Positions 9,759 through 25,065 of a stretch of 25,401 nucleotides of DNA are shown piece by piece (the stretch's first letter is position 1; the number at the start of each line of letters is the position of its first letter). The translations under genes and the position numbers were made by a program. The notes beneath the pieces were generated by a model that worked only from the letters and a program-made list of their open reading frames with translations, was not told the origin of the DNA and did not search any database. Origin of the DNA: a virus (Duplodnaviria > Heunggongvirae > Uroviricota > Caudoviricetes); IMG/VR virus record IMGVR_UViG_2802429217_000002, positions 1 through 25,401 of that record, one strand, 5' to 3'.

Positions 9759-9965
9759 ATGCTGAACCTCGATTGTGTTCCAATCTCAACTTATTGCAAA
9801 GAAACTGGCGAAACTCCTGAAGCAATAAACAAACGTGTACAGCGCGGTGTTTGGCGTGAAGGTGTTCAGGTTTTAAAGGTTGAAGGCGTTAAGGAGAGGT
9901 GGATTGATCTTAGTGAGGTTGCAAAATGGGCCAGACAAAACTGCTCAAACTACCGCGCGGCGTAA
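9759..9965 (+). CDS. xis: Excisionase (Xis-like)
   Basis: ATG at 9759 with GGAGAA RBS (track ORF begins at a GTG at 9747); small basic protein overlapping the int start, the classic xis-int arrangement. Confidence 0.6.
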   Translation: MLNLDCVPISTYCKETGETPEAINKRVQRGVWREGVQVLKVEGVKERWIDLSEVAKWARQNCSNYRAA

Positions 9966-11092
9966 CAATCAGGAAACACCGCCAGGGCGAAACGATCAAT
10001 ATAACTTTCACCTACAAAGGAGTTAAATGTCGTGAGCCTCTTTCCAATCTGGAAGTAACACCAAAGAACATAAAATACGCCGAGCGCACACTCGGCGAAA
10101 TTCATAATAAGATCGAAAGGGGAACATTCATTTATGCGGAATATTTTCCCCGTTCTGCTCGTTTGAAAATTTTTGGTAATGCTGCTGCAGGCAAAACGGT
10201 AAAAATGTACCTGGACGAATACCTTGAAATCTGCGAAACGAGAAAACTTTCACCCTCTACGATTGGTGGTTATAAAAAATGCCGTAGTGCGTTAGCCTCA
10301 CTCCACATTTGCCCTGCAAGTGAATTAACACCAGCAATCCTGAAAGCGTGGATTCAAAGCCAGAAAACGACCTTAAAAACAATTCGCAACCAGTTATCTT
10401 TCCTGCGGTCAGCACTTGATGAAGCCGTAACCGATGGGGTACTTCAAATTAACCCCGTATCGTTGGTAACTGCTTCGCGCTACCAAAGTGATAAGTCAGA
10501 AGCAGAAAGCAGCTACGTGGTTGATCCGCTATCACCAGCAGAAGTTGATGCATTACTAGCAGCAGCCGGAAACAAACAATGGGAAAATCTGTTCCGGTTC
10601 GCTATACATACAGGCCTGCGTAGTTCTGAATTATGTGCCCTTCGATGGCGTGATATCGACTTTGTTGGAAAAACTGCCCATGTCCAGAGCGCAAGTGTTG
10701 TCGGTGTTATCAAAGGGACAAAGACAAAAGCAGGTACTCGGAAAGTTGAACTGACAGAAGAGGCAATGTTGGCGCTGATAAATCAGAAGCCATTTACATT
10801 CATGAAGGATGCTACTGTCTTTGAAGATCCAAAGACCAATAAGCCTTGGGCAAGTGCTGATGCAATTAGGAAAAAAGCATGGGTGCCAACATTGCGAAAA
10901 GCAGGTATTCGTTACAGAAACCCATATCAAACCAGGCATACATTCGCCACCAGCCATATCAGCCGAGGAGCAAACCTGTTTTGGCTTGCAGCTCAAATGG
11001 GGCATAAAGGGCCTGAGATGCTTTTCAGGCACTATGGCTCATATCTGAAGGAATATGATGGACAAACAAGCTTGAAGAAGATAACAATATAA
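9926..11092 (+). CDS. int: Tyrosine-type site-specific integrase (lambdoid Int with N-terminal arm-binding region)
   Basis: 388-aa ORF; catalytic-domain signatures RFAIHTGLRSSELCALRWRDID, HQTRHTFATSHISRGANLFWLAAQMGHKGPEMLFRHYGSY (R...HxxR...Y). Confidence 0.85.
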   Translation: MGQTKLLKLPRGVTIRKHRQGETINITFTYKGVKCREPLSNLEVTPKNIKYAERTLGEIHNKIERGTFIYAEYFPRSARLKIFGNAAAGKTVKMYLDEYLEICETRKLSPSTIGGYKKCRSALASLHICPASELTPAILKAWIQSQKTTLKTIRNQLSFLRSALDEAVTDGVLQINPVSLVTASRYQSDKSEAESSYVVDPLSPAEVDALLAAAGNKQWENLFRFAIHTGLRSSELCALRWRDIDFVGKTAHVQSASVVGVIKGTKTKAGTRKVELTEEAMLALINQKPFTFMKDATVFEDPKTNKPWASADAIRKKAWVPTLRKAGIRYRNPYQTRHTFATSHISRGANLFWLAAQMGHKGPEMLFRHYGSYLKEYDGQTSLKKITI

Positions 11093-11109
11093 TCCAAGCA
11101 TGAAACTAT

Positions 11110-11132
11110 TGGCCACAATTTGTGGCCATTTT
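11110..11132 (+). terminator. Rho-independent terminator after int (perfect 9-bp palindrome TGGCCACAA-t-TTGTGGCCA followed by TTTT)
   Basis: Palindrome at 11110-11128 followed by T-run 11129-11132. Confidence 0.5.
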
Positions 11133-11150
11133 ACGGAGCAAGATAGAAAC

Positions 11151-12884
11151 ATGGCAAATCAAATTACCAAACTAAAAAATATAAATGTTGTGAAGTTTCG
11201 CGGACTGAAAAATATAAACATCGAGTTTGGTTCTCGCCTAACTGTTATTTGTGGTAAAAATGGCACATCTAAATCCACAATTCTTGGCATTATCGCCCAA
11301 ATATTTAGCTTTACAAAGGACTTTACCAAAAACCCTGAGACTGATTTAACACAATATAAAACATTAACAAATGGCAGCTTCAAGTCAGCTTTCAGCGAAC
11401 ATTTTAGGCTTTCAGAACAATTTGATGTTCCTGGTTCAATGGACGTCAAAATTAGTGTCTATGATGGTGCATCGAACAAACATCTTGAAAAACTAACATT
11501 AGGTTTATACAGCTACAGTGACAGAGATAAATCAAGGCCTGTAGTCAGGGGAAATGATTCAATACCGGAAAAAAACCAAAGTAGAAACGTTACTCATCCT
11601 GTTATTTTTTTAAGCTTAGCACGACTTCTTCCTATTACATTAAGGACTGATTACTCAACACGGGATGTTCAGTACATCAATGAAAATTCTGATGAAATCA
11701 GAATGATGAGTAACCAACTCTTACTAAAAAACAATGGAAGCTCAGTAACAGCAACAAAAGGTACTATCGATTCAATGGTTGTCCATGGTGACAATTATGA
11801 TCACCAATCAGTATCTGTTGGTGAAGATAATGTTGGACAATTAATCCAAGCAATTTTTTCATTTAAAAGATTGAAGGAAACTTATTCTGATTATCATGGC
11901 GGAATATTGTTAATTGATGAAGCCGATGCAGGTCTTTTCCCTGCTGCACAGTTAGAGCTAATTAATATTCTAACTAAAGCAGCAAAACAATACGATCTGC
12001 AAATAATCATGACCTCGCACTCTCCATTAATAATAGAGGATATCTATAATCGTTCAAAACAAGATAGTGATAGCTTTAAAACAATATATCTTACAGACAC
12101 ATATGGAGATATTAAAACAAAGAATAATCTTTCATGGACAGATATCCACGCTGATTTACATGTTGAAACTGTAAAAATTAATGATGACATTTGTCTTCCA
12201 AAGGCAAATGTATATTTTGAAGACAAAGAAGGTTTCGACTTTTTCAAACAATTGATAACAGATCGAAAAATAAATAAAATATTAAATCCATTAGGGAATA
12301 TAAATATTAGCTGCTCTGCCATGCTTGACTTAATGGCAAGAAAAATACCAGAATTTACAGCTAAAAGCTTGATCGTCTTAGACGGTGATGTTGTTCACGA
12401 CAATAGTGCTAATGCAAAAAAAGCCAAAAAAGAAAAAAACTTATGTTTGCTTCCAAGCACCTTACCTCCAGACCAAATGATTTTTGAGTTTTTATATAAT
12501 TTACCACCTGATGATGCATATTGGGAAAATAAAAATAAATTTACAAAAGCTGTTTTTATGAAAACAGCTAAAGACATAATTGCAACGCTAAAAATTGGTA
12601 ACGCTCCGATTGATTTAAAAATCCTTATAGATAATTATAAAAAAGTTAACAAAAACCATGGCGGGATAGTTAGAAAACTGTTTAAAGATTTTGCACATAC
12701 GACTCAATTTCAGGCCCAAGTAAAAGGGCGAGTTAAAGATAACCCATATCGATATTGGGTCGAGAAAAATCCTGTGCAATCGGATAGCTTCAAGAATGAA
12801 CTAATAAAGAGTCTTAAAGTTATTATGACAAGTGGACATGGTGTCGATTCTGCTACCATCTCATCATATCTGTCAGATAACTAA
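11151..12884 (+). CDS. OLD-family nuclease: N-terminal ABC-type ATPase plus C-terminal Toprim domain
   Basis: Walker A GKNGTSKST, Walker B ILLIDEADAGLFP, H-loop TSHSP; C-terminal Toprim-like Glu (VYFEDKEGFDFF) and DxD (IVLDGDVVHD), paralleling P2 Old motifs; ATG at 11151 assumed so that the int terminator is non-coding (track ORF starts 11100); AT-rich. Confidence 0.75.
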   Translation: MANQITKLKNINVVKFRGLKNINIEFGSRLTVICGKNGTSKSTILGIIAQIFSFTKDFTKNPETDLTQYKTLTNGSFKSAFSEHFRLSEQFDVPGSMDVKISVYDGASNKHLEKLTLGLYSYSDRDKSRPVVRGNDSIPEKNQSRNVTHPVIFLSLARLLPITLRTDYSTRDVQYINENSDEIRMMSNQLLLKNNGSSVTATKGTIDSMVVHGDNYDHQSVSVGEDNVGQLIQAIFSFKRLKETYSDYHGGILLIDEADAGLFPAAQLELINILTKAAKQYDLQIIMTSHSPLIIEDIYNRSKQDSDSFKTIYLTDTYGDIKTKNNLSWTDIHADLHVETVKINDDICLPKANVYFEDKEGFDFFKQLITDRKINKILNPLGNINISCSAMLDLMARKIPEFTAKSLIVLDGDVVHDNSANAKKAKKEKNLCLLPSTLPPDQMIFEFLYNLPPDDAYWENKNKFTKAVFMKTAKDIIATLKIGNAPIDLKILIDNYKKVNKNHGGIVRKLFKDFAHTTQFQAQVKGRVKDNPYRYWVEKNPVQSDSFKNELIKSLKVIMTSGHGVDSATISSYLSDN

Positions 12885-12963: not shown

Positions 12964-13863
12964 ATGCGTTTTAACACCCCACTTCGCTATCCTGGCGGTA
13001 AAGGCAAGCTTGCAAATTTCATGCTTCGGCTTATTGAAGAAAATAATCTTTCGCCTATACATTATGCCGAACCATATGCTGGGGGTGCTGGTTTAGCATT
13101 GAAACTGTTACATCTAAATGCAGCTGAAAAAATCATCCTTAATGATATTAATATTTCTGTTTATGCTTTTTGGCACAGTGTATTAAATCATGCAGATCAA
13201 TTATGTTCTTTAATTGAAAGAACTGAAGTTACAATGGATGAATGGTTTAGGCAGAAAGATATAATTAATAATCCTAAAGACCATGATCTTTTAACAATTG
13301 GTTTCTCAACCTTTTTTCTCAATAGAACAAATCGTTCTGGAATATTAAAAGGTGGAGTAATTGGCGGTAAAAATCAAGAAGGGAAATGGAAGCTTGACGC
13401 TCGCTATAATAAGAGTGATTTGATTTCTCGAATCCATAAAATATCAGAAAATCGTCACAGAATAGATTTATATAACATGGATGCAATTGATTTCATTAAA
13501 AAAATAGTTATTCAATTGCCACAAAACTCATTAACATATTTGGATCCACCTTATTACATAAAAGGTAAAGGTTTATATATCAACCATTATAATCATGATG
13601 ATCATGTTAGGGTTGCAAAAGTCGTACAGAATAATATTAAAACACCTTGGATTGTTTCTTACGATAACACTCCTGAGATCCAAGCTATGTATAAGACATC
13701 ATCATTAGTATATGGAATAAACTACAGTGCTCAAGATCGGTACAAAGGATCTGAGGTAATGTTCTTCAGTGAACGATTGAAAATCTTTAAAACAGATGAT
13801 CCAACTAAGGTAAAAGCGCCTGTATTTAAAAGAGGATGTGTTGACGACCACATCCAGACATAA
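12964..13863 (+). CDS. D12-class N6-adenine DNA methyltransferase (Dam family)
   Basis: Motifs LRYPGGKGK (Dam LKWAGGK), EPYAGGAGLAL (AdoMet binding), ILNDINISVYAFW, FFLNRTNRSG, LDPPYY (catalytic DPPY); AGAGG RBS; AT-rich. Confidence 0.85.
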   Translation: MRFNTPLRYPGGKGKLANFMLRLIEENNLSPIHYAEPYAGGAGLALKLLHLNAAEKIILNDINISVYAFWHSVLNHADQLCSLIERTEVTMDEWFRQKDIINNPKDHDLLTIGFSTFFLNRTNRSGILKGGVIGGKNQEGKWKLDARYNKSDLISRIHKISENRHRIDLYNMDAIDFIKKIVIQLPQNSLTYLDPPYYIKGKGLYINHYNHDDHVRVAKVVQNNIKTPWIVSYDNTPEIQAMYKTSSLVYGINYSAQDRYKGSEVMFFSERLKIFKTDDPTKVKAPVFKRGCVDDHIQT

Positions 13864-14151: not shown

Positions 14152-15342
14152 ATGGCGCGTATCACACGCCCCCTCACTAACAATGAAATCCTTAAAGCCA
14201 AACCCCGTGAAAAAGACTTCACCCTTCATGATGGTGATGGCTTGTTCTTGCTCGTCAAAACCACTGGTAAAAAACTCTGGCGCTTCCGTTATCAACGACC
14301 GGGAAGCAGCAGCCGCACAAATTTGAGTCTCGGCTCATATCCTGCCCTTACACTCGCAGCAGCTCGTCAGATACGCGACCAGCACTTAACCACGCTTGCG
14401 CAAGGTATGGATCCGCAGCAGCAACAAGAGCAGGCATCAGAACAACGTCAGATTGAGTTGGATAGTATTTTCTCAACTGTGGCCGCCAACTGGTTCAAAA
14501 TGAAGAGCAAAAGTGTCACTGAAGACTACGCTAAAGATATTTGGCGCTCTTTGGATAAGGATGTGTTCCCTGCAATAGGCGCGATTCCTGTTCAGGAGAT
14601 TAAGGCCAGAACTATAGTTGAAGCGTTGGAACCAATCAAAGCACGAGGTGCATTAGAAACTGTTCGTCGCTTGGTCCAGCGCATTAACGAAATAATGATT
14701 TACGCAGTTAACACAGGCCTGATTGATGCTAATCCGGCATCGGGTGTCGGAATGGCATTTGAGAAACCGAAAAAGCAAAACATGCCGACACTTCGACCAG
14801 AAGAATTGCCAAAGCTCATGCGCTCTTTGGTGATGTCGAATCTCTCAGTTTCGACCCGCTGTCTAATTGAATGGCAACTCCTGACGCTCGTGCGTCCATC
14901 TGAGGCTTCTGGCGCTCGGTGGGTAGAGATCGATCTTGATGCCAGGCTCTGGACAATTCCAGCAGAGCGGATGAAAGCAAATCGAGAGCATATCGTTCCT
15001 TTATCAACCCAGGCGTTAGAAATTTTGGAAGTAATGAAGCCTATTAGTGCTCATCGTGAACATGTCTTCCCCAGTAGAAATGATCCCAAACAGCCAATGA
15101 ATAGCCAGACGGCGAACGCTGCCTTAAAGCGGATTGGTTATGGTGGAAAGTTGGTTGCACATGGTTTACGTTCAATTGCGAGTACAGCTATGAACGAGGC
15201 GGGATTCAATGCTGACGTCATTGAGTCTGCTCTAGCACACTCTGATAGAAATGAAGTTAGAAGAGCTTATAATCGTTCTACATATCTAGATAAAAAAATA
15301 ATACTATTTAACTGGTGGGGTGCACAGGTCTATAAGAAGTAA
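14152..15342 (+). CDS. int: P4-type tyrosine integrase (CP4-57 IntA-like)
   Basis: 396-aa ORF; N-terminus MARITRPLTNNEILKAKPREKDFTLHDGDGLFLLV typical of P4-family integrases; located about 180 nt downstream of the ssrA 3' end as intA is in E. coli K-12. Confidence 0.85.
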   Translation: MARITRPLTNNEILKAKPREKDFTLHDGDGLFLLVKTTGKKLWRFRYQRPGSSSRTNLSLGSYPALTLAAARQIRDQHLTTLAQGMDPQQQQEQASEQRQIELDSIFSTVAANWFKMKSKSVTEDYAKDIWRSLDKDVFPAIGAIPVQEIKARTIVEALEPIKARGALETVRRLVQRINEIMIYAVNTGLIDANPASGVGMAFEKPKKQNMPTLRPEELPKLMRSLVMSNLSVSTRCLIEWQLLTLVRPSEASGARWVEIDLDARLWTIPAERMKANREHIVPLSTQALEILEVMKPISAHREHVFPSRNDPKQPMNSQTANAALKRIGYGGKLVAHGLRSIASTAMNEAGFNADVIESALAHSDRNEVRRAYNRSTYLDKKIILFNWWGAQVYKK

Positions 15343-15374: not shown

Positions 15375-18011
15375 TTATTCAGTAAATATTACATCATCAA
15401 TATTAAAAGACACTTTAAAATTAGGGTAGAGTTTCAATATTACCTTTTCGAAAATCTCATCATCATCATTTAAATTTCTTGCTCTTGAATAAAGACGGTA
15501 ATTATCTTTTGTTATTTGTTTAATTTCGATATGACAAGCATCATTACTATCAAAGCCTCTAAAGAAGGTAAAACTATCCAAACTTACAGCATAAATATTA
15601 TTCAAGGCATTTTCGTCCTCAAAGAAGTAAGTTAACTTATAATCCTTATAAACTTCATAATTATAGTTCTTAACTGAATTTTTATTCACAAATAATATAT
15701 AATTACTCTTCTCTATATCAGCATCATTAAATTTTAAAAAACGCCCTCCTGCTTTGACACAATTGAATAATTGCTGCTTATATATAGATATGATTCCATC
15801 GCCATATAGCCCAGCACTTGATAAATATGAAACATCATCAACCACGCCTAAAAACTCACGTTTTGATGGATAAAAAATTAGTTCACTTGTTTTATGGCAT
15901 ATAGGAAGCTTGGATAAATCAACATTTAATGTACTAACAAGCCATTTATTTAAATGTAAATTCACATCTATTTTAAAGCGTAATACAATGTTCTTATCCA
16001 TTGTCGATTTTATAACTTTTCTCGTAACTTCTTTGCTCTTATACTCCAACATCATATCAAATTTATCTTTAATTAAATCCACTTCCCTTTTCACTTCATT
16101 ATTATCATACCCCATAGATGTTACCATTATATCTAATTCAGGAGACTCACACGCTTTAATTAGCAGGTGATAGTCGTTAGAACTAAATCCCACCACATCG
16201 ACTAATTTACGCCAGTCGTACAAGTATCTCAGGTTAAACCCTCTACGTTTTACAGCCAAAACCAATAATATAAAGACTAATGCTCTTATTGCATAGTGAT
16301 ATTCTGTAACAGTATAGGCCTCACCTTCCGGGAGATTTCTAATTCGTTGTTCATCTATACTTGCACGAATTCTTTCTTCATAAGAACCAAATAACATTCC
16401 ATATAACTCAATTTCATCTGTATAATTAGAAAAGATAGCAAGATCGCTCCACAATTTGCTAGCATTAATTATCGCATCGATCTCCACGTCACTTTTATTG
16501 TCAGTTTGAATTGCGCTCCAACGCATCTGAAGAACAGTTAAAACAAACCGCTGAATTTTAAATATAACAGAAATAATTTCGCTAGCATTTCTTTTTTCTA
16601 AATTCAAATACTTGACACTAAGATGCTTAGTTCCTGCATTAAAGTAATCCCCCCAAAACATTATCGCACTGTAATCTAACTCATTGCATGCAGATTCAAT
16701 CAACCCTTTAATGACTTCATAATAGTCTGCGTTATCATCGTGATAACTCAAATAACTATTCAAGGTATCTTCATGATTTTTGATAAAAGCATTAAAGTCA
16801 TCTCTATTTAAAGAGAGTTTTGCTATCTGTATTATAAATTCTAACGCGGCAGTTTTCTTTCTAAGATTAACATTCAACTCAGAAAAATTATTCATTAACT
16901 CATCAATAGAATTTTTTTTCACATCCGAATTATTTAAATATTGATATGACAGTCCAAAAGCTATATCAAAAGGATATGCTGAAACATCCCCATTAACTAA
17001 GCATGAAAAAACATTAATAGCATTTCTTATTGACTCTCTGTTATTTTCCAAAAGAGCACTATACAGATAGATGACAACCCCATTAATTAATTCATCATAA
17101 TGATTAATCACTTTAAATTCATTATCTGTTATTAACACACCAACAATCAAAGAAGAAACTTTCTTTGATGATTTTTTATCCAAAATTTTTTTAGCCGTAT
17201 AATTAACTTCTATAGTTTTGCTTCCACTACTATGCAGGTTAATATTTGGCACAATAATTTCATATTCATCCAATAAACCTTTTATCTTCATTCCATTTAA
17301 AAAATTGTTTAGTTTATGGAATTTCTCTAAATCTATGTCAACAGTCAAAACATTATCACCCCCATATATCCCTATGCTATATGGTTGTTGCTTTTGCATT
17401 TTCATTTTGCCATAAGAATAATATCCATTTGGTAAATCTCTAACTAGATTTAAAATCTTATCATGTAATTCAGAGTTAGCATCCTCTAACAAGGTATAAC
17501 CCTTGACAAGACTTGAGCAGTGAGATTGTAAATACTCAACAGCGAAGTTCTTATTACGTGACATGTTAAATAATTTCAAGTATGTTTTAAAATACTTCAA
17601 AAGAAAATACATTGATAGTAATTGTGACACCACATACTGAGCAATACCACCACCAAAAACAAAAAAGAAGAATGAAATTATCAAGGTTGATATTGCATCA
17701 ATACCAAACTGCACAAGGTTGATTTCATCCAGTATCTTTTTCCTAATATAACTTTCCAACGCATGAGGTGAGGATTTATTAACAGCATCAACAGTCACAC
17801 TCATAAAAGTTAATGACAACGCACTGATTGTACCGTGTATACCTAAGGAGACCCCCCAAGCACTAAATATCCAATCAAACCCCAATTTTTTTAAATCACT
17901 AGAATTAGAAAACAACCACCACCACTCATTTTTACAAAAAAAAACAAGAATACATAAAGTAAAAAAAATAAAAAAACCAGAGATATAACAAAACAATCTT
18001 TTACCCATCAT
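15375..18011 (-). CDS. Uncharacterised 878-aa protein with N-terminal transmembrane segments; hotspot cargo, candidate anti-phage defense protein
   Basis: Uninterrupted ORF; AAGGA RBS; N-terminal hydrophobic stretches (FCYISGFFIFFTLCILVFF, WIFSAWGVSLGIHGTISALSLTFM, AISTLIISFFFFVFGGGIAQYVV); very AT-rich versus the GC-rich P4 core genes; lies between int and cos where P4 carries gop/beta/cII. Confidence 0.7.
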   Translation of the reverse strand: MMGKRLFCYISGFFIFFTLCILVFFCKNEWWWLFSNSSDLKKLGFDWIFSAWGVSLGIHGTISALSLTFMSVTVDAVNKSSPHALESYIRKKILDEINLVQFGIDAISTLIISFFFFVFGGGIAQYVVSQLLSMYFLLKYFKTYLKLFNMSRNKNFAVEYLQSHCSSLVKGYTLLEDANSELHDKILNLVRDLPNGYYSYGKMKMQKQQPYSIGIYGGDNVLTVDIDLEKFHKLNNFLNGMKIKGLLDEYEIIVPNINLHSSGSKTIEVNYTAKKILDKKSSKKVSSLIVGVLITDNEFKVINHYDELINGVVIYLYSALLENNRESIRNAINVFSCLVNGDVSAYPFDIAFGLSYQYLNNSDVKKNSIDELMNNFSELNVNLRKKTAALEFIIQIAKLSLNRDDFNAFIKNHEDTLNSYLSYHDDNADYYEVIKGLIESACNELDYSAIMFWGDYFNAGTKHLSVKYLNLEKRNASEIISVIFKIQRFVLTVLQMRWSAIQTDNKSDVEIDAIINASKLWSDLAIFSNYTDEIELYGMLFGSYEERIRASIDEQRIRNLPEGEAYTVTEYHYAIRALVFILLVLAVKRRGFNLRYLYDWRKLVDVVGFSSNDYHLLIKACESPELDIMVTSMGYDNNEVKREVDLIKDKFDMMLEYKSKEVTRKVIKSTMDKNIVLRFKIDVNLHLNKWLVSTLNVDLSKLPICHKTSELIFYPSKREFLGVVDDVSYLSSAGLYGDGIISIYKQQLFNCVKAGGRFLKFNDADIEKSNYILFVNKNSVKNYNYEVYKDYKLTYFFEDENALNNIYAVSLDSFTFFRGFDSNDACHIEIKQITKDNYRLYSRARNLNDDDEIFEKVILKLYPNFKVSFNIDDVIFTE

Positions 18012-18312: not shown

Positions 18313-18879
18313 CTACCGTGCGGCCAGTTCTGCACGTCGGCGGGTGTAAATCAGGTTCTGTGCCGGGGTGAATTTCTGGCGATTATCATCCCGCGAGGCC
18401 GCATCAGGCCTGAATCCGATAGCCGTTAAAATGTCGCTGTCCTGCGCGGAATAATTAATTTTTTCACCTGCGGCCAGCCACACCGACAGGGCTTCACGCA
18501 GATAATCAACCGAGTGCTGCATGGCGCTCTGTTTTACTGCGGGAATTTGTTCGTGATATCCCATCAGCTCAGGCGCCAGCGTGGCGGCCAGATCCGCGCC
18601 GTGCTGCTGCATAAAGTCATGGAGCCGGTTGCGGATGCTGATGTGCTGCACTTCCTCATGTGAGCGGATATAGCGACCGGCAGCCTGATTAATCACCCAT
18701 TTTTTCACGTCGATATTGTCGCGCAAATCCTGCATTCTGCGCGGGATTTGTTCGTCACCAGCAAGGAGCTGTTCACGGTATTCAAGCTCAAGGTCAGCCA
18801 GTTCGGCTTTACGTTTCAGCCAAGTGTTTTTGTTCGTCTGACAGGCCTCAAAGGCCTGCTGCAATGTCACAGTGGTCAC
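18313..18879 (-). CDS. psu: Polarity suppression protein Psu
   Basis: 188-aa ORF; MTTVTLQQAFEAC..., YIRSHEEVQHISIRNRLHDFMQQHG, KINYSAQDSDILTAIGFRPD closely parallel P4 Psu as I recall it. Confidence 0.85.
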   Translation of the reverse strand: MTTVTLQQAFEACQTNKNTWLKRKAELADLELEYREQLLAGDEQIPRRMQDLRDNIDVKKWVINQAAGRYIRSHEEVQHISIRNRLHDFMQQHGADLAATLAPELMGYHEQIPAVKQSAMQHSVDYLREALSVWLAAGEKINYSAQDSDILTAIGFRPDAASRDDNRQKFTPAQNLIYTRRRAELAAR

Positions 18880-18894: not shown

Positions 18895-19134
18895 TTAATG
18901 CCGGAACGGCGAGCTGTAGCAGCCCTGTACTTTACGCGGCGGCGGTGGCGTCACCGGTGCGGGGTCGGTTTTTTCCGGTGCGGCACGTATCACACCGTCA
19001 ACCGACTCGATGGTGCGGAAAGTGGCCGAGCATTCGATATTGGTACACTGGTGATAACGTTGTTTGACGTTTTCCGACAGATAACGGCTGGTACGGACGT
19101 GCGCGGTCTTTTTGCAGAACGGACAGTGAAACAT
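18895..19134 (-). CDS. delta: Ogr/Delta-family zinc-finger late transcription activator
   Basis: 79-aa ORF MFHCPFCKKTAHVRTSRYLSENVKQRYHQCTNIECSATF matches the P2 Ogr CxxC...CxxC motif. Confidence 0.85.
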   Translation of the reverse strand: MFHCPFCKKTAHVRTSRYLSENVKQRYHQCTNIECSATFRTIESVDGVIRAAPEKTDPAPVTPPPPRKVQGCYSSPFRH

Positions 19135-19137
19135 AAT

Positions 19138-19881
19138 TCAGCCCTCTGCCTGTTCGTGGTCTTTTGCGGCCAGTTCAGCGGCAAGCTTCATCCGTCTGGC
19201 GGGGCTTCTTAACAGCGCCATATCAACCCCGGTTATGACCGGGCGATTCATGCCCGTTACGGACAGAACCGGTTCCTGCTCCATATCGAAATGATACAGG
19301 GCTGACTGTAGATTCAGGGCATCGCCCAGCTCGCGGGTCACGGTCGCACGCGGCGAGGTTTCTCCGCTCATTTCCAGCGACCGTATACGCAACAGGAAGG
19401 CACGTAACAGTGCAGGGCTGATACCGGCCAGCACTTTCTTCCATTCGCTGTTGGCGTAAGTGGTGAATGCTTTTTCGTGGGCGCTGATATAAGCCGTACC
19501 GGAGGAGCATGCGCCAAGCATGGCGAGGCCTTTGTCTTTCTCCAGCTCGGTAATCAGACCGGTGAACTCATCAGCCAGTTCTCGGCTGGCGATACGTTTA
19601 CTGTGTTCAGCTTTCAGTTCAGGAGTGAGGTTGCCGCGCAGGGTTCGAAAGCGGCTGCGCCAGTCCTGTTCGGCCTGTGCGCTTTCACTGAGGGCAGTCT
19701 GTCGTTCCTGCTCACAACGCTGAATGGAAGCCTCAATGTCGCTGAGTTTACCCATGCTGGCCGTGTGTGCGTCTTTTGCTTCGTTAAGTGCGGCCAGCGC
19801 ACCGGCAATACGTTGTTCCGCGCCTTCATCCTGTTTACTGATAACGGTCTGCATGGCTTTGATAATGAGTTCGGGTTTCAT
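19138..19881 (-). CDS. sid: Capsid size determination protein Sid (P4-like)
   Basis: Position upstream of delta and psu in one operon; coiled-coil-like Ala/Glu-rich sequence; ATG at 19881 with GGAGAG RBS preferred over 19947 because the late-promoter activator site sits at 19954-19971. Confidence 0.7.
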   Translation of the reverse strand: MKPELIIKAMQTVISKQDEGAEQRIAGALAALNEAKDAHTASMGKLSDIEASIQRCEQERQTALSESAQAEQDWRSRFRTLRGNLTPELKAEHSKRIASRELADEFTGLITELEKDKGLAMLGACSSGTAYISAHEKAFTTYANSEWKKVLAGISPALLRAFLLRIRSLEMSGETSPRATVTRELGDALNLQSALYHFDMEQEPVLSVTGMNRPVITGVDMALLRSPARRMKLAAELAAKDHEQAEG

Positions 19882-19904
19882 GTTCAGGCTCTCCGTGTGT
19901 TCAA

Positions 19905-19971
19905 CCTGAAATGATTCTGACGCCTCCTGCACAACAACACGATTCATTGCCGTTGTCAGAGTGCTGGCACA
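19905..19971 (-). promoter_or_regulatory. P4 Psid-type late promoter with Ogr/Delta binding site TGT-N12-ACA
   Basis: TGT(19954-19956)-N12-ACA(19969-19971) dyad; its centre lies about 56 nt upstream of the predicted start, with a -10-like CAGAAT. Confidence 0.6.
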
Positions 19972-20050: not shown

Positions 20051-20170
20051 TTCACCACTGTTCACCCTAAATAAAAAGATAAGCGATACAGTAAGTTAAA
20101 GGGTGAATAGTTGAGGGTCTGACTGTTCACCGTCTGTTCACCACTGTTCACCCTTCACTTTGTGAAGCCA
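20051..20170. repeat. Cluster of TGTTCACC octamers (P4 alpha-protein type I iteron motif), candidate ori
   Basis: TGTTCACC at 20124, 20135, 20145 plus variants at 20051-20067 and GGTGAATAG at 20101. Confidence 0.55.
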
Positions 20171-20244
20171 GTCAACCTATTAGATTTTTTAGCGATTAAA
20201 AAAACAGAAGTATATAAACAAAAGTAATCAGCAATGGGCCACCG

Positions 20245-20283
20245 GTTTGCCAACGTTTGCCAAAAAACGGCCAACGTTTGCCA
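20245..20283. repeat. Three copies of GTTTGCCA (two as GCCAACGTTTGCCA) upstream of alpA; candidate regulator-binding repeats
   Basis: Copies at 20245-20252, 20255-20262, 20276-20283, followed by TATAAA. Confidence 0.35.
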
Positions 20284-20422
20284 CTGTATAAAAATCGCTC
20301 TGTTGTGTGGTGGAGTACTACAAAATGACTTGTTGCCCTGAGGGAAAATATTCACAAAATAGAGAGCTACCCGAAGCCGGACGGACACGACCGGCACTGT
20401 ATGGACTTTGTGAGGTAGCCCG

Positions 20423-20689
20423 ATGCACACCGCTTTTTCTTCCCCGTCTTCTACCCCTGCCGCGCCGCTGATGCCGGTTTCTGATACCGTTCACGAACGC
20501 TTTATCCGTCTGCCCGAAGTGATGCATCTGTGCGGCCTGTCCCGCTCGACCATTTACGACCTCATCAGCCGGGAAGCCTTCCCGAAACAAATCTCCCTCG
20601 GCGGGAAAAATGTGGCGTGGGCGCAGTCTGAAATCACTGCATGGATGGCGGATCGCATTGCCGAACGTAACCGGGGCTATGACGCATGA
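20423..20689 (+). CDS. alpA: AlpA-family phage regulatory protein / excisionase
   Basis: [55 protein letters not shown] matches the AlpA/Vis HTH family; GAGG RBS. Confidence 0.7.
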
Positions 20690-21027
20690 TGATGACCGTT
20701 CAGCAAACAGCCCCTTTTTCTGGCTTGCTTCTTTTCGCCGTTTCCAGGTATAGTTTTCCCGCTGTCGCAAAATCGGCAGCCGGGCGTAGGAACCCGTGTT
20801 TAACTATGGCGACACCGGACGCGCCTTGCGTCTTTTTTTGTGTCTGTGCCTTGATGCACCCATTCAATACACAGTGGCCTTTTCGCCATTGTGGGTATCG
20901 CGTAATGGTGGCTCAGGCGGGGCAGCCTTCGGGCTGGCCGGTTCTCATAGTTACCGGTATTCCTACCCCCGTCTGGGCTACCACCCATGAGCGTAGGAAC
21001 TCCGATGGTAGCTGTAACCAGCTAACT

Positions 21028-21237
21028 ATGGAGGTTGCCCTTATGGCTATGACCCTCACCCCGTCACACCCGCAGTTTGTCTTTGTGTTTGCCGCCGTTC
21101 GTCGCGCAGACCGTAAACCCCGTATTTGCATGCTGCGCACCGTTGCCGGTGACGAGCACGCCGCACGCCTTTCCCTCGTTCGCGATTACATCCTCTCGTT
21201 CGCTGGCCGTTTGCCGGTTCTGGAGGTGCGCGCATGA
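21028..21237 (+). CDS. Small hypothetical protein of the P4-like early operon (tentative)
   Basis: Internal ATG of track ORF 20686-21237; upstream part of that ORF looks non-coding (repeats and hairpins). Confidence 0.3.
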
Positions 21238-21461
21238 GACACACCACCATTACCGCCCGTGACCTCGAATGCCTTGAGCATATGCGCAATGTCGGCCAGC
21301 TCGTCAATGAGCTGATGCAGGTGCAGGATTGCGCCACCGTTCGTCGTGACCCGGCGCAGCAGTTACAGCTCACCTCCGTGATTTACCTCATGACCGCCCA
21401 GCTCGACGGCGTGGTCGAACGCTGCAATCAGCAGTGGCTGACCGGGGAGGGTAACGTATGA
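21234..21461 (+). CDS. Hypothetical protein (position of P4 epsilon-like gene)
   Basis: 75-aa ORF overlapping neighbours by 4 nt on both sides, indicating operon coupling. Confidence 0.45.
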
Positions 21462-21778
21462 AACAGCCATTACCGCCCGTATTACGCGCCGCGCAGTATC
21501 GTCGCGCCGTGGCCTGTGCATGGCTGACCCTGTGCGAACGCCAGCACCGCTACCCGCACCTCACCCTCGACGCGCTGGAAAGCGCCATTGCCGCCGAGCT
21601 GGAGGGCTTTTACCTGCGCCAGCACGGCGAGGAAAAAGGCCGCCAGATTGCCTGTGCCCTGCTCGAAGATTTAATGGAAGCCGAACCACTCAAGGCCGCG
21701 CCGTCGCTGTCCTTTCTCGGGCTGGCCGTGATGGATGAACTCTGCGCCCGTCATATCACCGCACCGGCACTGCACTGA
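21458..21778 (+). CDS. Hypothetical protein upstream of alpha primase
   Basis: 106-aa ORF, translationally coupled to the upstream gene. Confidence 0.5.
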
Positions 21779-21789
21779 GGGAGAACACC

Positions 21790-24123
21790 ATGAAAATGAA
21801 CGTAACGGACACCGTAAAACAGGCGTGCGGCCACTGGCCGCGCATTCTCCCGGCGCTGGGGGTAACGGTCATCAAAAACCGCCATCTGACCTGTCCGGTG
21901 TGTGGCGGCTCCGACCGCTTTCGCTTTGACGATAAAGAGGGACGCGGGACGTGGTTCTGCAATCAGTGCGGCGCGGGTGACGGGCTTAAGCTGGTAGAAA
22001 AAGTGTTTGGCGTGACCCCGTCAGAGGCGGCCGGGAAGGTGAACGCCGAGACCGGCAACCTGCCGCCGGTTGCCCCGGAAGTGATTGCGGTCGCAGAGGC
22101 TGAAACGGAGGCCGACCGCAAAGCGGCGGCCACGCTGGCCGTCAGGCTCATGGAGAAAACCCGACCAGCCACCAGCAATGCCTACCTCACCTGCAAGGGT
22201 TTCCCCGCTCTGGAATGTCTGACGCTCACCGCCATGCATAAAACCGGCGGCGTGACGTTCCGCGCCGGGGATGTGGTTGTCCCGCTGTATGACAATACCG
22301 GCGTACTGGTTAACCTTCAGCTTATCAATGCAGACGGTCTCAAACGCACCCTGAAAGGCGGGCAGGTCAAAGGGGCATGTCATATCATCGAAGGGAAAAA
22401 ACAGGCCGGAAAACGCCTGTGGATTGCGGAGGGTTATGCGACCGCGCTCACCGTGCATCACCTGACAGGGGAAACCGTCATGGTGGCGCTGTCCTCCGTG
22501 AACCTCCTTTCTCTGGCAAGCCTTGCCCGTCAGAAATATCCGGCCTGTCAGATTGTCCTGGCCGCCGACCGTGACCTTAACGGCGACGGCCAGAGTAAAG
22601 CCGCTGCGGCCGCAGATGCCTGTGAGGGCATTGTTGCCCTGCCGCCGGTGTTCGGTGACTGGAATGATGCGTTTATGCAGAAAGGTGAAGAAGCCACCCG
22701 GAAAGCCATTTATGACGCCATCCGGCCACCGGCGCAAAGTCCGTTCGACACCATGAGCGAGGCGGAATTTACCGCCATGAGCGCCAGCGACAAGGCTTTG
22801 CGGGTGCATGAGCACTACAGCGAAGCGCTGGCGGTGGATGCTAACGGCCAGCTCCTGTCCCGCTATGAAAACGGCATCTGGAAAAATATCCCTGCCGCCA
22901 CTTTTTCACGGAATGTGGCTGATTTATTCCAGCGCCTGCGCGCCCCGTTCTCGTCAGGGAAAATTGCCTCGGTGGTCGAGACCCTGAAACTGATTATTCC
23001 GCAGCAGGATACACCGGCGCGCCGTCTGATTGGCTTTCGCAATGGGGAACTCGATACCCAAAGTGGCCTGTTCAGCCCGCACAGTAAATCGCACTGGCTG
23101 CGCACGCTGTGCGACGTGGATTTCACCCCGCCGGTGGACGGAGAAACGCTGGAGACTTACGCGACGAACTTCTGGCGCTGGCTCGACCGTGCGGCCGGTA
23201 AAAATCCCCAAAAACGCGATGTGATTCTGGCTGCGCTGTTTATGGTGCTGGCGAACCGCTACGACTGGCAGCTCTTTCTCGAAGTCACCGGTCCCGGCGG
23301 GAGCGGCAAAAGTATTCTGGCCGAAATCGCGACCCTGCTCGCCGGGGAAGATAATGCCACGTCAGCCGATATCGACACACTGGAAGACCCGCGCAAGCGT
23401 GCCTCCCTGATTGGCTTCTCGCTAATCCGTCTGCCAGACCAGGAAAAATGGAGCGGTGACGGCGCAGGACTCAAGGCCATCACCGGCGGCGATGCAGTTT
23501 CAGTTGACCCGAAATACCAGAATCCGTACTCAACGCATATTCCGGCGGTGATTCTGGCCGTGAACAATAACCCGATGCGCTTCACCGACCGCAGCGGCGG
23601 CGTCTCCCGTCGCCGGGTGATTATTCATTTCCCGGAGCAGATTGCCCCGGAGGAACGCGACCCGCAGCTCAGGGATAAAATTGCACGCGAGCTGGCCGTC
23701 ATCGTGCGCCAGCTTATGCAGAAATTCAGCGACCCGATGACCGCGCGCGCACTGCTCCAGTCGCAGCAGAACTCCGACGAGGCACTCAGCATTATGCGCG
23801 ATGCTGACCCGACGTTTGATTTTTGCGGCTATCTGGAGATGCTCCCGCAGACCAACGGGATGTTTATGGGGAATGCCAGCATCATCCCGCGTAATTATCG
23901 TAAATATCTCTATCATGCGTATCTGGCCTATATGGAGGCTAACGGATACAGGAACGTGCTCAGCCTGAAAATGTTCGGGCTGGGGCTGCCCATGATGCTG
24001 AAAGAGTACGGCCTGAATTATGAGAAGCGGCACACCAAGCAGGGGATACAAACCAACCTGTCGCTGAAAGAGGAAAGCTACGGCGACTGGCTGCCGAAGT
24101 GTGACGCCCCCACAGCGACATAA
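21790..24123 (+). CDS. alpha: P4 alpha-type bifunctional DNA primase/helicase
   Basis: 777-aa ORF; N-terminal zinc-binding CPVCGG...CNQCG, central toprim-like region, C-terminal P-loop VTGPGGSGKS; length matches P4 alpha as I recall it. Confidence 0.9.
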   Translation: MKMNVTDTVKQACGHWPRILPALGVTVIKNRHLTCPVCGGSDRFRFDDKEGRGTWFCNQCGAGDGLKLVEKVFGVTPSEAAGKVNAETGNLPPVAPEVIAVAEAETEADRKAAATLAVRLMEKTRPATSNAYLTCKGFPALECLTLTAMHKTGGVTFRAGDVVVPLYDNTGVLVNLQLINADGLKRTLKGGQVKGACHIIEGKKQAGKRLWIAEGYATALTVHHLTGETVMVALSSVNLLSLASLARQKYPACQIVLAADRDLNGDGQSKAAAAADACEGIVALPPVFGDWNDAFMQKGEEATRKAIYDAIRPPAQSPFDTMSEAEFTAMSASDKALRVHEHYSEALAVDANGQLLSRYENGIWKNIPAATFSRNVADLFQRLRAPFSSGKIASVVETLKLIIPQQDTPARRLIGFRNGELDTQSGLFSPHSKSHWLRTLCDVDFTPPVDGETLETYATNFWRWLDRAAGKNPQKRDVILAALFMVLANRYDWQLFLEVTGPGGSGKSILAEIATLLAGEDNATSADIDTLEDPRKRASLIGFSLIRLPDQEKWSGDGAGLKAITGGDAVSVDPKYQNPYSTHIPAVILAVNNNPMRFTDRSGGVSRRRVIIHFPEQIAPEERDPQLRDKIARELAVIVRQLMQKFSDPMTARALLQSQQNSDEALSIMRDADPTFDFCGYLEMLPQTNGMFMGNASIIPRNYRKYLYHAYLAYMEANGYRNVLSLKMFGLGLPMMLKEYGLNYEKRHTKQGIQTNLSLKEESYGDWLPKCDAPTAT

Positions 24124-24564: not shown

Positions 24565-25065
24565 ATGGGGACTACTTTGCTTCAAGAAAACCATGAAAAA
24601 ATTTTAAACATACTAAATGAAGCTAAAGATGTGGCGCTAAGGTATTACAAACTAACCAATAAGCCTCTCGGAATCACTGGAGAAATAGCTGAACATGAAG
24701 CTGCAACTCTTCTCGGGTTGTCACTATGTTCAGCACGTCAGTCCGGATACGATGCGACTGAGATTTTGGACGGGAAAGAATATAGAGTTCAAATCAAAGG
24801 TCGATATATGCCTGATCCTAAAAAAGTCTCTGCGAGAATTGGTGCTATTGATATAGCTAAGCCATTTGATTCTGTTCTTTTAGTTTTGCTTGATGAAAAT
24901 TATGATGCTTTTGCCATGTATGAAGCATCACGAGATGTAGTAGTCGCAGCTCTTCAAGCTCCGGGGTCAAAGTCTAGAAATGAGCGAAATCAGCTAGGCA
25001 TAGCAAAATTCAAGTCCATTAGCCGTCTCCGCTGGAGCAAGGATGTTGAACCTGAGATCCTTTAA
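24565..25065 (+). CDS. Hypothetical 166-aa protein, AT-rich cargo at right end of the satellite
   Basis: ORF with GGGAA SD-like sequence; no confident motif (possible D...QIK nuclease-like signature); ends 1 nt before the right 23-bp repeat. Confidence 0.5.
   Translation: MGTTLLQENHEKILNILNEAKDVALRYYKLTNKPLGITGEIAEHEAATLLGLSLCSARQSGYDATEILDGKEYRVQIKGRYMPDPKKVSARIGAIDIAKPFDSVLLVLLDENYDAFAMYEASRDVVVAALQAPGSKSRNERNQLGIAKFKSISRLRWSKDVEPEIL

Follow-up and report, generated by a model that had tools for sequence, protein, structure and literature searches.

Immunity of the satellite phage P4 reportedly depends on an RNA, encoded in a region that comprises PLE, seqA, cI (CI RNA, seqB), seqC, kil and eta and that is said to have been worked out by Deho, Ghisotti, Forti, Sabbattini, Briani and co-workers between 1992 and 2002. 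For phages P1 and P7, the immI region with the c4 antisense RNA, icd and ant was reportedly described by Citron and Schuster in 1990 and by Biere et al. in 1992. The mechanism of the P4 CI RNA has been described (PMC4825925), and CI and C4 RNAs are both RNase P substrates (PMC5499578); in P4 and P1, RNase P generates the 5' end of the mature RNA, which brings about immunity by premature termination (PMC5499578, PMC4825925). In prophages of the P4 type, the RNAs resembling IsrK and C4 are those named seqA and CI RNA in work on P4 (PMC3632133; also PMC4825925). According to the account of Forti 1999 that is given in PMC10111431, translation of P4 eta occurs only from an upstream late promoter, is coupled to that of the alpA homologue and keeps transcripts from terminating, while the nested kil gene is translated from the constitutive promoter. 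Here we analyzed 25,401 nucleotides of a Caudoviricetes virus record (IMGVR_UViG_2802429217_000002, positions 1 to 25,401; referred to as the window), in which a first-pass annotation made from the sequence had suspected a P4-type RNA immunity region. The stretch 20344-21228 very probably holds the switch by which a P4-like satellite prophage controls immunity and maintains lysogeny; its build is that of PLE-seqA-cI-seqC-kil of P4 and c4-icd of P1 and P7. The P4-type antisense-RNA immunity system as such is already known; the copy in the window carries a specificity other than that of P4.

Comparison with phage genomes by BLAST displayed 78% identity between region 20344-21228 and the immunity region of P4, the match spanning 83% of the 1-kb query. 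A search of the whole window with Rfam gave exactly two matches above the gathering score, isrK and C4, both located within the region of repeats and hairpins. The same pair was found by Rfam in P4 and in E. coli FORC_081, which is the closest E. coli homologue with 92.6% identity; approx. 1088 of 5426 complete E. coli genomes match the region. As in P4, vis/alpA is followed by a long open reading frame (ORF) that contains promoter, leader, CI RNA, target and kil, and then by orf106 and alpha. The long frame starts at the alpA stop as it does in P4, and in both elements a single antisense segment has complementary sites on either side, the downstream one at the kil ribosome binding site. Together with the covariation of motifs in about 100 loci, the identity to P4 and the shared pair of Rfam RNAs support the suspected RNA immunity region. 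All computationally testable defining features of the P4 CI and P1 C4 system were found, with the exception of the Rfam c4-a1b1 model. The coordinates of the individual elements are compiled in Table 1.

Table 1. Elements of the immunity region and core genes of the satellite (positions refer to the window)
Feature	Positions	Strand	Evidence and remarks
Integrase (Phage_integrase)	14152-15342		Profile match
psu (Psu)	18313-18879		Profile match
ogr/delta (Ogr_Delta)	18895-19134		Profile match
sid-like gene (PHROG 6165)	19138-19947		PHROG match
alpA / P4 vis (orf88) homologue, 88 aa	20423-20689	+	Pfam Phage_AlpA, 3e-20
Long ORF, 183 aa, P4 eta equivalent	20686-21237	+	ATG overlaps alpA stop (ATGA); same frame as kil
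TATAGT, -10 box of putative PLE-like constitutive promoter	20749-20754	+	Conservation; P4 record X02534
isrK-type leader RNA (P4 seqA RNA)	20761-20838	+	Rfam RF01394, 70.6 bits (gathering 50)
a1 target GCGTAGGAAC, core GTAGGAA 20786-20792	20784-20793	+	Complementary to a'; duplex -8.5 kcal/mol
b1 target TAACTATGG	20801-20809	+	Complementary to b' loop; duplex -7.5 kcal/mol
Intrinsic terminator GGACGCG-CCT-TGCGTCT + T7	20817-20840	+	Terminator scan; end of leader
C4 / P4 CI-type antisense RNA	20901-20988	+	Rfam RF01695, 82.3 bits (gathering 45)
b' specificity loop TCTCATAGTT	20943-20952 (20943-20953 with closing A)	+	Unpaired in minimum free energy and Rfam structures
a' specificity junction ATTCCTAC	20959-20966	+	Follows hairpin 2; unpaired in minimum free energy and Rfam structures
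a2 target GCGTAGGAAC	20991-21000	+	Complementary to a'
b2 target TAACTATGG	21023-21031 (feature to 21034)	+	Overlaps kil Shine-Dalgarno GGAGG 21030-21034
kil / Icd-like gene, 64 aa	21043-21237	+	NCBIfam phage_ICD_like, 7.8e-22
DUF5375 (P4 orf106)	21458-21778		Profile match
alpha primase-helicase	21790-24123		Profile match

The two repeat copies about 200 bp apart, which the first-pass annotation had pointed out, are real. Both GCGTAGGAAC and TAACTATGG occur exactly twice in the 25.4-kb window. For GCGTAGGAAC the expected number was 0.01 and none of 100 shuffled sequences held two or more copies; for TAACTATGG the expectation was 0.14, again with two copies in none of 100 shuffles. The inverted repeat TTCCTAC/GTAGGAA noted earlier is likewise present (20960-20966 versus 20993-20999), one nucleotide from where it had been placed. 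The TTCCTAC arm is complementary not only to the GTAGGAA core at 20993-20999 but also to the one at 20786-20792. A second complementarity was detected between CATAGTTA at 20946-20953 and both copies of TAACTATG. The sites follow each other in the order a1, b1, b', a', a2, b2, with a1 and b1 lying within the leader RNA, and exact 7-8-nt complements of a' or b' are present at all four target sites of the window. The predicted cognate duplexes amount to -7.5 to -8.5 kcal/mol per patch.

The segment between the target pairs matches the C4 covariance model over its full length (positions 1-87). It folds into an 88-nt structure, in which a 17-bp outer stem encloses two hairpins, with a minimum free energy of -49.7 kcal/mol and a z-score of -5.55, and the minimum free energy structure equals the Rfam structure. 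Within a 300-nt fold of the leader, C4 forms an independent domain that leaves b' and a' unpaired. The b' loop sits in hairpin 2 and pairs with b1 and b2 via eight Watson-Crick pairs and one G-U pair, while the a' junction pairs with a1 and a2 through seven Watson-Crick pairs. Across the homologous loci, six pairs of the outer stem showed compensatory changes, and 99.6% of the cells were paired compared to at most 49% in slid controls. A scan of the window for tRNA and tmRNA genes found none, and the structure is not a tRNA; by analogy, it may be a tRNA-like substrate of RNase P.

Upstream of C4, the leader consists of hairpin 1, a hairpin presenting a1, the single-stranded b1 site and a terminator hairpin followed by a U-tract. 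The terminator is identical with the terminal hairpin of the isrK model and also forms in the 300-nt fold. The TATAGT -10 box is invariant in the window, P4 and FORC_081, and coincides with the 'consensus -10 sequence' annotated in P4 record X02534. Transcription would start at about position 20761, where the Rfam isrK model begins, 7 nt 3' of the -10 box. The c4-a1b1 model (RF03163, 20748-20800) reached 45.2 bits with an E-value of 5.7e-10 and missed its gathering score of 46.7 by 1.5 bits; the FORC_081 homologue passes it with 47.0 bits. The shortfall is marginal, concerns a redundant model that overlaps isrK and does not speak against homology. An Rfam match to SprD (17 bits versus a gathering score of 100, E-value 0.71) was dismissed as chance. 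The complementarity of b', the unpaired patches in the stable 88-nt fold, the intrinsic terminator and the Rfam membership are all additional to the features listed in the first-pass annotation.

To compare the motifs among related elements, IMG/VR was scanned with the conserved C4 core, which gave 119 loci, 101 of them unique. The scaffold is kept in all 101 unique loci, and the specificity patches vary on it: 9 a' and 17 b' core variants were found in 38 combinations. Exact 7-nt complements of the locus' own a' and b' are present at all four targets in 86 of the 101 loci, and 383 of 404 single sites are perfect 7-nt complements. When patches were paired with targets of a non-cognate type, 6670 of 6744 pairings had zero matching sites. 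Twelve of the 21 imperfect sites deviate by G-U pairs only, which fits RNA-RNA pairing and not DNA repeats. The complementarity of b2 reaches into the GGA in most loci. An analysis of RNA structure and covariation across P4-like elements had been proposed as a check in the first-pass annotation; its outcome, compensatory changes in the outer stem and co-change of antisense and target sites in the 101 loci, is in line with the RNA reading.

Differences between near-identical backbones are mostly concerted at a1/a'/a2 or at b1/b'/b2. Of the 11 positions that distinguish loci L025 and L032 over about 860 nt, six are due to one dinucleotide change that recurs at a1, a' and a2. Between L018 and L025, 12 of 23 differences are located at b1, b' and b2. 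In the latter pair, the positions +96, +98 and +99 from the start of the C4 core, between a2 and b2, switch together with the b-type. Such joint change is a hint that b2 is paired within a local hairpin when the mRNA is not targeted.

Short direct repeats about 210 bp apart in the vicinity of a promoter might also be recognized at the DNA level by proteins, as iterons of alpha or as operators of AlpA/Vis, and the P4 ori indeed contains short direct repeats just upstream of orf88. However, the P4 repeats are located elsewhere, upstream of that gene, and in the window a third, inverted copy of each repeat falls exactly into an unpaired loop or junction of a structured RNA. Moreover, the three copies covary across about 100 loci, and the G-U-compatible imperfect sites preserve RNA pairing but not DNA identity. 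On the basis of the RNA-type covariation and the tolerance of G-U pairs, the iteron or operator reading was rejected; we regard it as extremely improbable.

A single reading frame, that of the long ORF, runs through the promoter, both RNA elements and the nested kil gene. Our data show that the position given in the first-pass annotation, a leader downstream of alpA, is not simply correct, as the alpA stop overlaps the start of the eta frame in ATGA (20686-20689). The alpA product aligns with ORF88 of P4, an 'excisionase and transcriptional regulator'. Followed upstream from the kil ATG, the eta frame stays free of stop codons until past the isrK loop in 90 of 95 unique loci, while the other two frames are shut within 12-135 nt. 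The distances between isrK loop and kil ATG are 273, 276, 279, 282, 300, 312 or 321 nt, that is multiples of three, in 89 of the 95 loci, and in one lineage the a' junction has lost 1 nt and, 25 nt downstream, another 2 nt are missing. The frame is broken in five of the 95 loci (L031, L051, L074, L079 and L106), which have lengths that are not multiples of three or early stops and retain intact C4 and targets. Such loci may belong to elements in decay or to lineages that do without eta translation, or they may reflect sequencing errors.

Given this open frame, the region might be taken for a plain protein-coding gene ('Ash', a 'cI transcriptional repressor' or a long Icd-like protein), in which the repeats and hairpins are incidental. 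Annotation resources favor this view. The 183-aa ORF matches Pfam Phage_ASH (PF10554) with 2e-34 at residues 22-131, corresponding to nucleotides 20749-21078, and PHROG 6928, a 'transcriptional repressor', with 2e-76; in RefSeq the homologous E. coli stretch is a frameshifted Icd-like pseudogene or coding sequence, and no RNA gene is annotated there. The pattern of variation is different from that expected of such a gene. Entropies at codon positions 1, 2 and 3 were 0.22, 0.21 and 0.69 in kil, whereas the regions upstream of it gave 0.44/0.49/0.33, 0.32/0.23/0.26 and 0.19/0.22/0.24 without any third-position excess (borders of the regions were shifted by 1 nt, the codon phase being right). Amino acid constraint is thus limited to the kil part, the last 64 codons of the ORF, consistent with the non-protein-like character attributed to its N-terminal half in the first-pass annotation. 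Protein coding in the N-terminal two thirds was rejected on this codon-position variation despite the open frame. Conservation instead tracks the RNA helices and the antisense/target complementarity, including the departures that are G-U only. The family matches cover exactly the isrK and C4 DNA, and Phage_ASH and PHROG 6928 appear to be protein models built on DNA whose conservation is that of RNA. Furthermore, 'cI repressor protein' is a legacy label of P4 that has been superseded by the CI RNA (PMC4825925, PMC3632133). The open frame itself is no argument against the RNAs, as eta translation and RNA function coexist in P4 (PMC10111431). A plain protein gene is therefore very unlikely.

Coding constraint across the whole ORF had been named beforehand as an observation that would speak against an RNA-based region. 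The frame is kept open here, but amino acid constraint is restricted to kil. Such constraint is an invalid discriminator, because P4 eta itself is translated from the late promoter while encoding the RNAs. The lack of amino acid constraint upstream of kil would fit the idea that, as in P4, translation itself is what matters. The kil product and the 65-aa Kil ORF of P4 share 84% identity, and the kil ATG at 21043 is preceded at a distance of 8 nt by the Shine-Dalgarno sequence GGAGG (21030-21034). By analogy with P4, kil would be the first gene translated from the PLE-like transcript.

The window and P4 differ in the sequences that are expected to define specificity. The a sequence is GUAGGAA in the window and GUGAGAA in P4, the b sequence is UAACUAUG instead of UUCACAGG, and the b' loop reads CAUAGUUA instead of CCUGUGAA. 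Pairing of P4 a' with the a sites of this element was predicted at only -2.0 to -3.4 kcal/mol, compared to -8.4 to -8.5 kcal/mol for the cognate a'. Judging from the differing motifs and this weak cross-pairing, the element is probably heteroimmune to P4. The b' loop of the window starts with UUCUCA (20943-20948), which is the P4 a' motif UUCUCAC minus one base and which gives -7.1 kcal/mol with the P4 a sites; this likeness could be due to chance or could be a trace of shuffling between a and b modules. P4 also has 45 extra nt between leader and CI RNA, and the gene at the epsilon position of the window is unrelated to P4 epsilon.

The antisense RNA belongs to the same Rfam C4 family as that of the P1/P7 immI region, in which a' and b' patches likewise pair with upstream a1/b1 and downstream a2/b2 sites and b2 is located at the ribosome binding site of an Icd-like ORF. 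In P1 and P7, shifts in specificity are matched changes in RNA and targets as they are here, and the antisense RNA is cut by RNase P from the very transcript that it regulates (PMC5499578), which by analogy may hold for the window. The two systems differ in what surrounds the switch. Downstream of icd, the window carries a satellite replication operon with the alpha primase-helicase and not the antirepressor gene ant, and it has alpA/vis and a read-through eta ORF upstream; the one element is a satellite, the other a plasmid prophage. In the linear plasmid prophages N15, phiKO2 and PY54, the C4 portion is 73-81% identical to the window. The match in N15 falls on the feature 'cA: secondary immunity repressor', and N15 is listed among structurally similar systems (PMC3632133). 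These phages share only the C4 core with the window (phiKO2 also the leader), their flanking genes are different, and the CA RNA is a secondary system beside a protein repressor.

A further relative is the isrK/orf45 (STnc1160)/anrP locus of Salmonella prophage Gifsy-1, which has an isrK-family leader with a Rho-independent terminator (Hershko-Shalev 2016, PMC4825925). It also has an approx. 80-nt processed RNA downstream in the read-through transcript, as is predicted for the window, and a leader complementary to that downstream RNA. In Gifsy-1 the short RNA turns on translation of orf45/anrP, from which the antiterminator AntQ and growth arrest follow (PMC4825925), unlike the P4-type repression of kil and alpha that is presumed for the window from its context. 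The window might nevertheless be mainly an activator of the IsrK type, whose leader acts in trans or sponges the C4-like RNA via a1/b1 and thereby drives induction. Its leader is a full-length isrK family member with a terminator, and it holds perfect copies of both C4 target motifs, so that it could titrate the antisense RNA; IsrK of Gifsy-1 supplied in trans raises orf45/anrP translation more than 100 fold (PMC4825925). However, synteny and the 78% identity point to P4 and not to Gifsy-1, and the downstream gene is kil/icd and neither an antirepressor nor an antiterminator gene. The role of P4 seqA is negative, as it is needed to establish immunity, and IsrK-like elements of P4-like prophages were required in transposon-directed insertion-site sequencing (TraDIS) of S. 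Typhi, which fits a role in maintaining lysogeny (PMC3632133). Only for Salmonella IsrK was the short RNA shown to bind Hfq and to act in trans (PMC4825925). A predominantly activating function is thus unlikely, and the two roles are not exclusive, since a leader decoy could modulate the same switch.

Following P4 and P1 biology, the proposed P4-type switch would operate as follows. The weak constitutive promoter would initiate transcripts at about 20761, many of which would end at the leader terminator near 20840 and give a short IsrK/seqA-type RNA bearing a1 and b1. Read-through RNA would hold the 88-nt C4/CI structure, from which RNase P and 3' trimming would free a stable small RNA. Its b' loop CAUAGUUA and its a' junction UUCCUAC are predicted to pair in trans with b2 and a2 upstream of kil, which would hide the Shine-Dalgarno sequence and leave kil untranslated. 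The untranslated RNA would then be terminated, by Rho in the case of P4, before orf75, DUF5375 and the alpha primase-helicase gene are reached. Pairing with a1/b1 in the nascent leader may strengthen early termination or buffer the free antisense RNA. Once the late promoter is on, ribosomes coming from alpA would re-initiate at ATG 20686 and translate the eta frame through the RNA elements. This translation would shield the late transcript from termination and render it insensitive to immunity. By the same analogy, the a and b sequences would set the specificity of immunity.

The anatomy of the locus, its homology and the covariation of stems and of antisense and target motifs are established here. 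Several points weigh against the interpretation as a P4-type immunity switch. What is assumed here about the promoter, the RNA ends, processing, Rho dependence and the immunity phenotype comes entirely from P4 and P1. A scan of 20150-21300 for sigma-70 consensus sequences found no promoter, and the putative PLE-like promoter is called from the conserved -10 box and the P4 annotation only; a simple consensus scan misses it because the -35 box is weak. Folded alone, the isrK segment was no better than shuffled sequences (z = -1.5). The inner helices of C4 were fixed by the pattern used for the homologue search and are invariant, so that they contribute no covariation information. Even for P4, it has not been settled what exactly a1/b1 do (PMC3632133), and in Gifsy-1 the short RNA homologous to the leader acts positively (PMC4825925). 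Finally, the prophage could be defective and the switch without consequence.

The surroundings of the immunity region contain the core gene set of a P4-like satellite: integrase, psu, delta, sid, alpA and alpha. The P4 protein epsilon is a helper derepressor. At the corresponding position the window encodes orf75 (75 aa, 21234-21461), which is without a Pfam match and falls only into PHROG 10110 (function unassigned, 2.6e-46). BLASTP revealed no similarity between orf75 and P4 epsilon (E-value 18), and orf75 may provide a different helper-derepression function. P4-like satellites carry variable defence cargo between integrase and psu (PMC9122126). In the window this interval holds an AT-rich ORF of 878 aa on the minus strand (15375-18011), which matches PHROGs 18005 and 10073 (unknown function). 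It displayed no Pfam domain and only a negligible PADLOC match to AbiEi (E-value 9e-4), and is a candidate for an uncharacterised defence gene. Downstream of alpha, a 166-aa ORF (24565-25065) was matched over its full length by PADLOC mREase_II, a Type II methyl-directed restriction enzyme, with 6e-99, and by Pfam DUF6998; this ORF is probably defence cargo of the satellite. The gene for a second tyrosine integrase (9926-11092) precedes those for an AAA ATPase (11100-12884), with matches to PtuA/GajA/AriA-like proteins, and for a D12-class methyltransferase (12964-13863; PADLOC PD-Lambda-5_B, 5e-124). The segment 9926-13863 looks like a separate small island with a PD-Lambda-5-like defence system that adjoins the satellite integrase.

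For annotation, these results mean that the 183-aa ORF is to be described as a translated-through frame housing the promoter, the leader RNA and the immunity RNA, and not as a repressor or 'Ash' protein. The labels in Pfam, PHROG and RefSeq still present the RNA genes as protein. For the element itself, the specificity differing from that of P4 predicts coexistence with P4 and escape from P4-type immunity. The specificity-bearing 36-mer of the window was also found in genomes of Buttiauxella ferragutiae and Edwardsiella anguillarum and in two IMG/VR loci.

Precedents for differing immunity specificity are P1 versus P7 and P4 versus phiR73. The survey presented here shows that antisense and target motifs co-evolve sharply, and leaves the known mechanism unchanged. 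In the text of an earlier survey of P4-like elements (PMC8628076), the terms 'antisense' and 'CI RNA' do not occur. There might be an RNA address code of two modules (a x b) in P4-like satellites on which diversifying selection acts, with at least nine a-types, at least 17 b-types and at least 38 combinations, a proposition for which we consider the chances to be evenly balanced. New specificities may arise on near-identical backbones by concerted change at the leader target, the antisense RNA and the ribosome-binding-site target. As the sites are interleaved, one module cannot be transferred by a single crossover; repeated conversion at several sites, or stepwise passage through G-U intermediates, would have to be assumed. 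If true, the address code would amount to a natural collection of antisense/target pairs that are orthogonal to one another, and would define superinfection-exclusion groups among satellites. The combinatorial and concerted diversification of a and b is a tidy illustration of how immunity specificity evolves.

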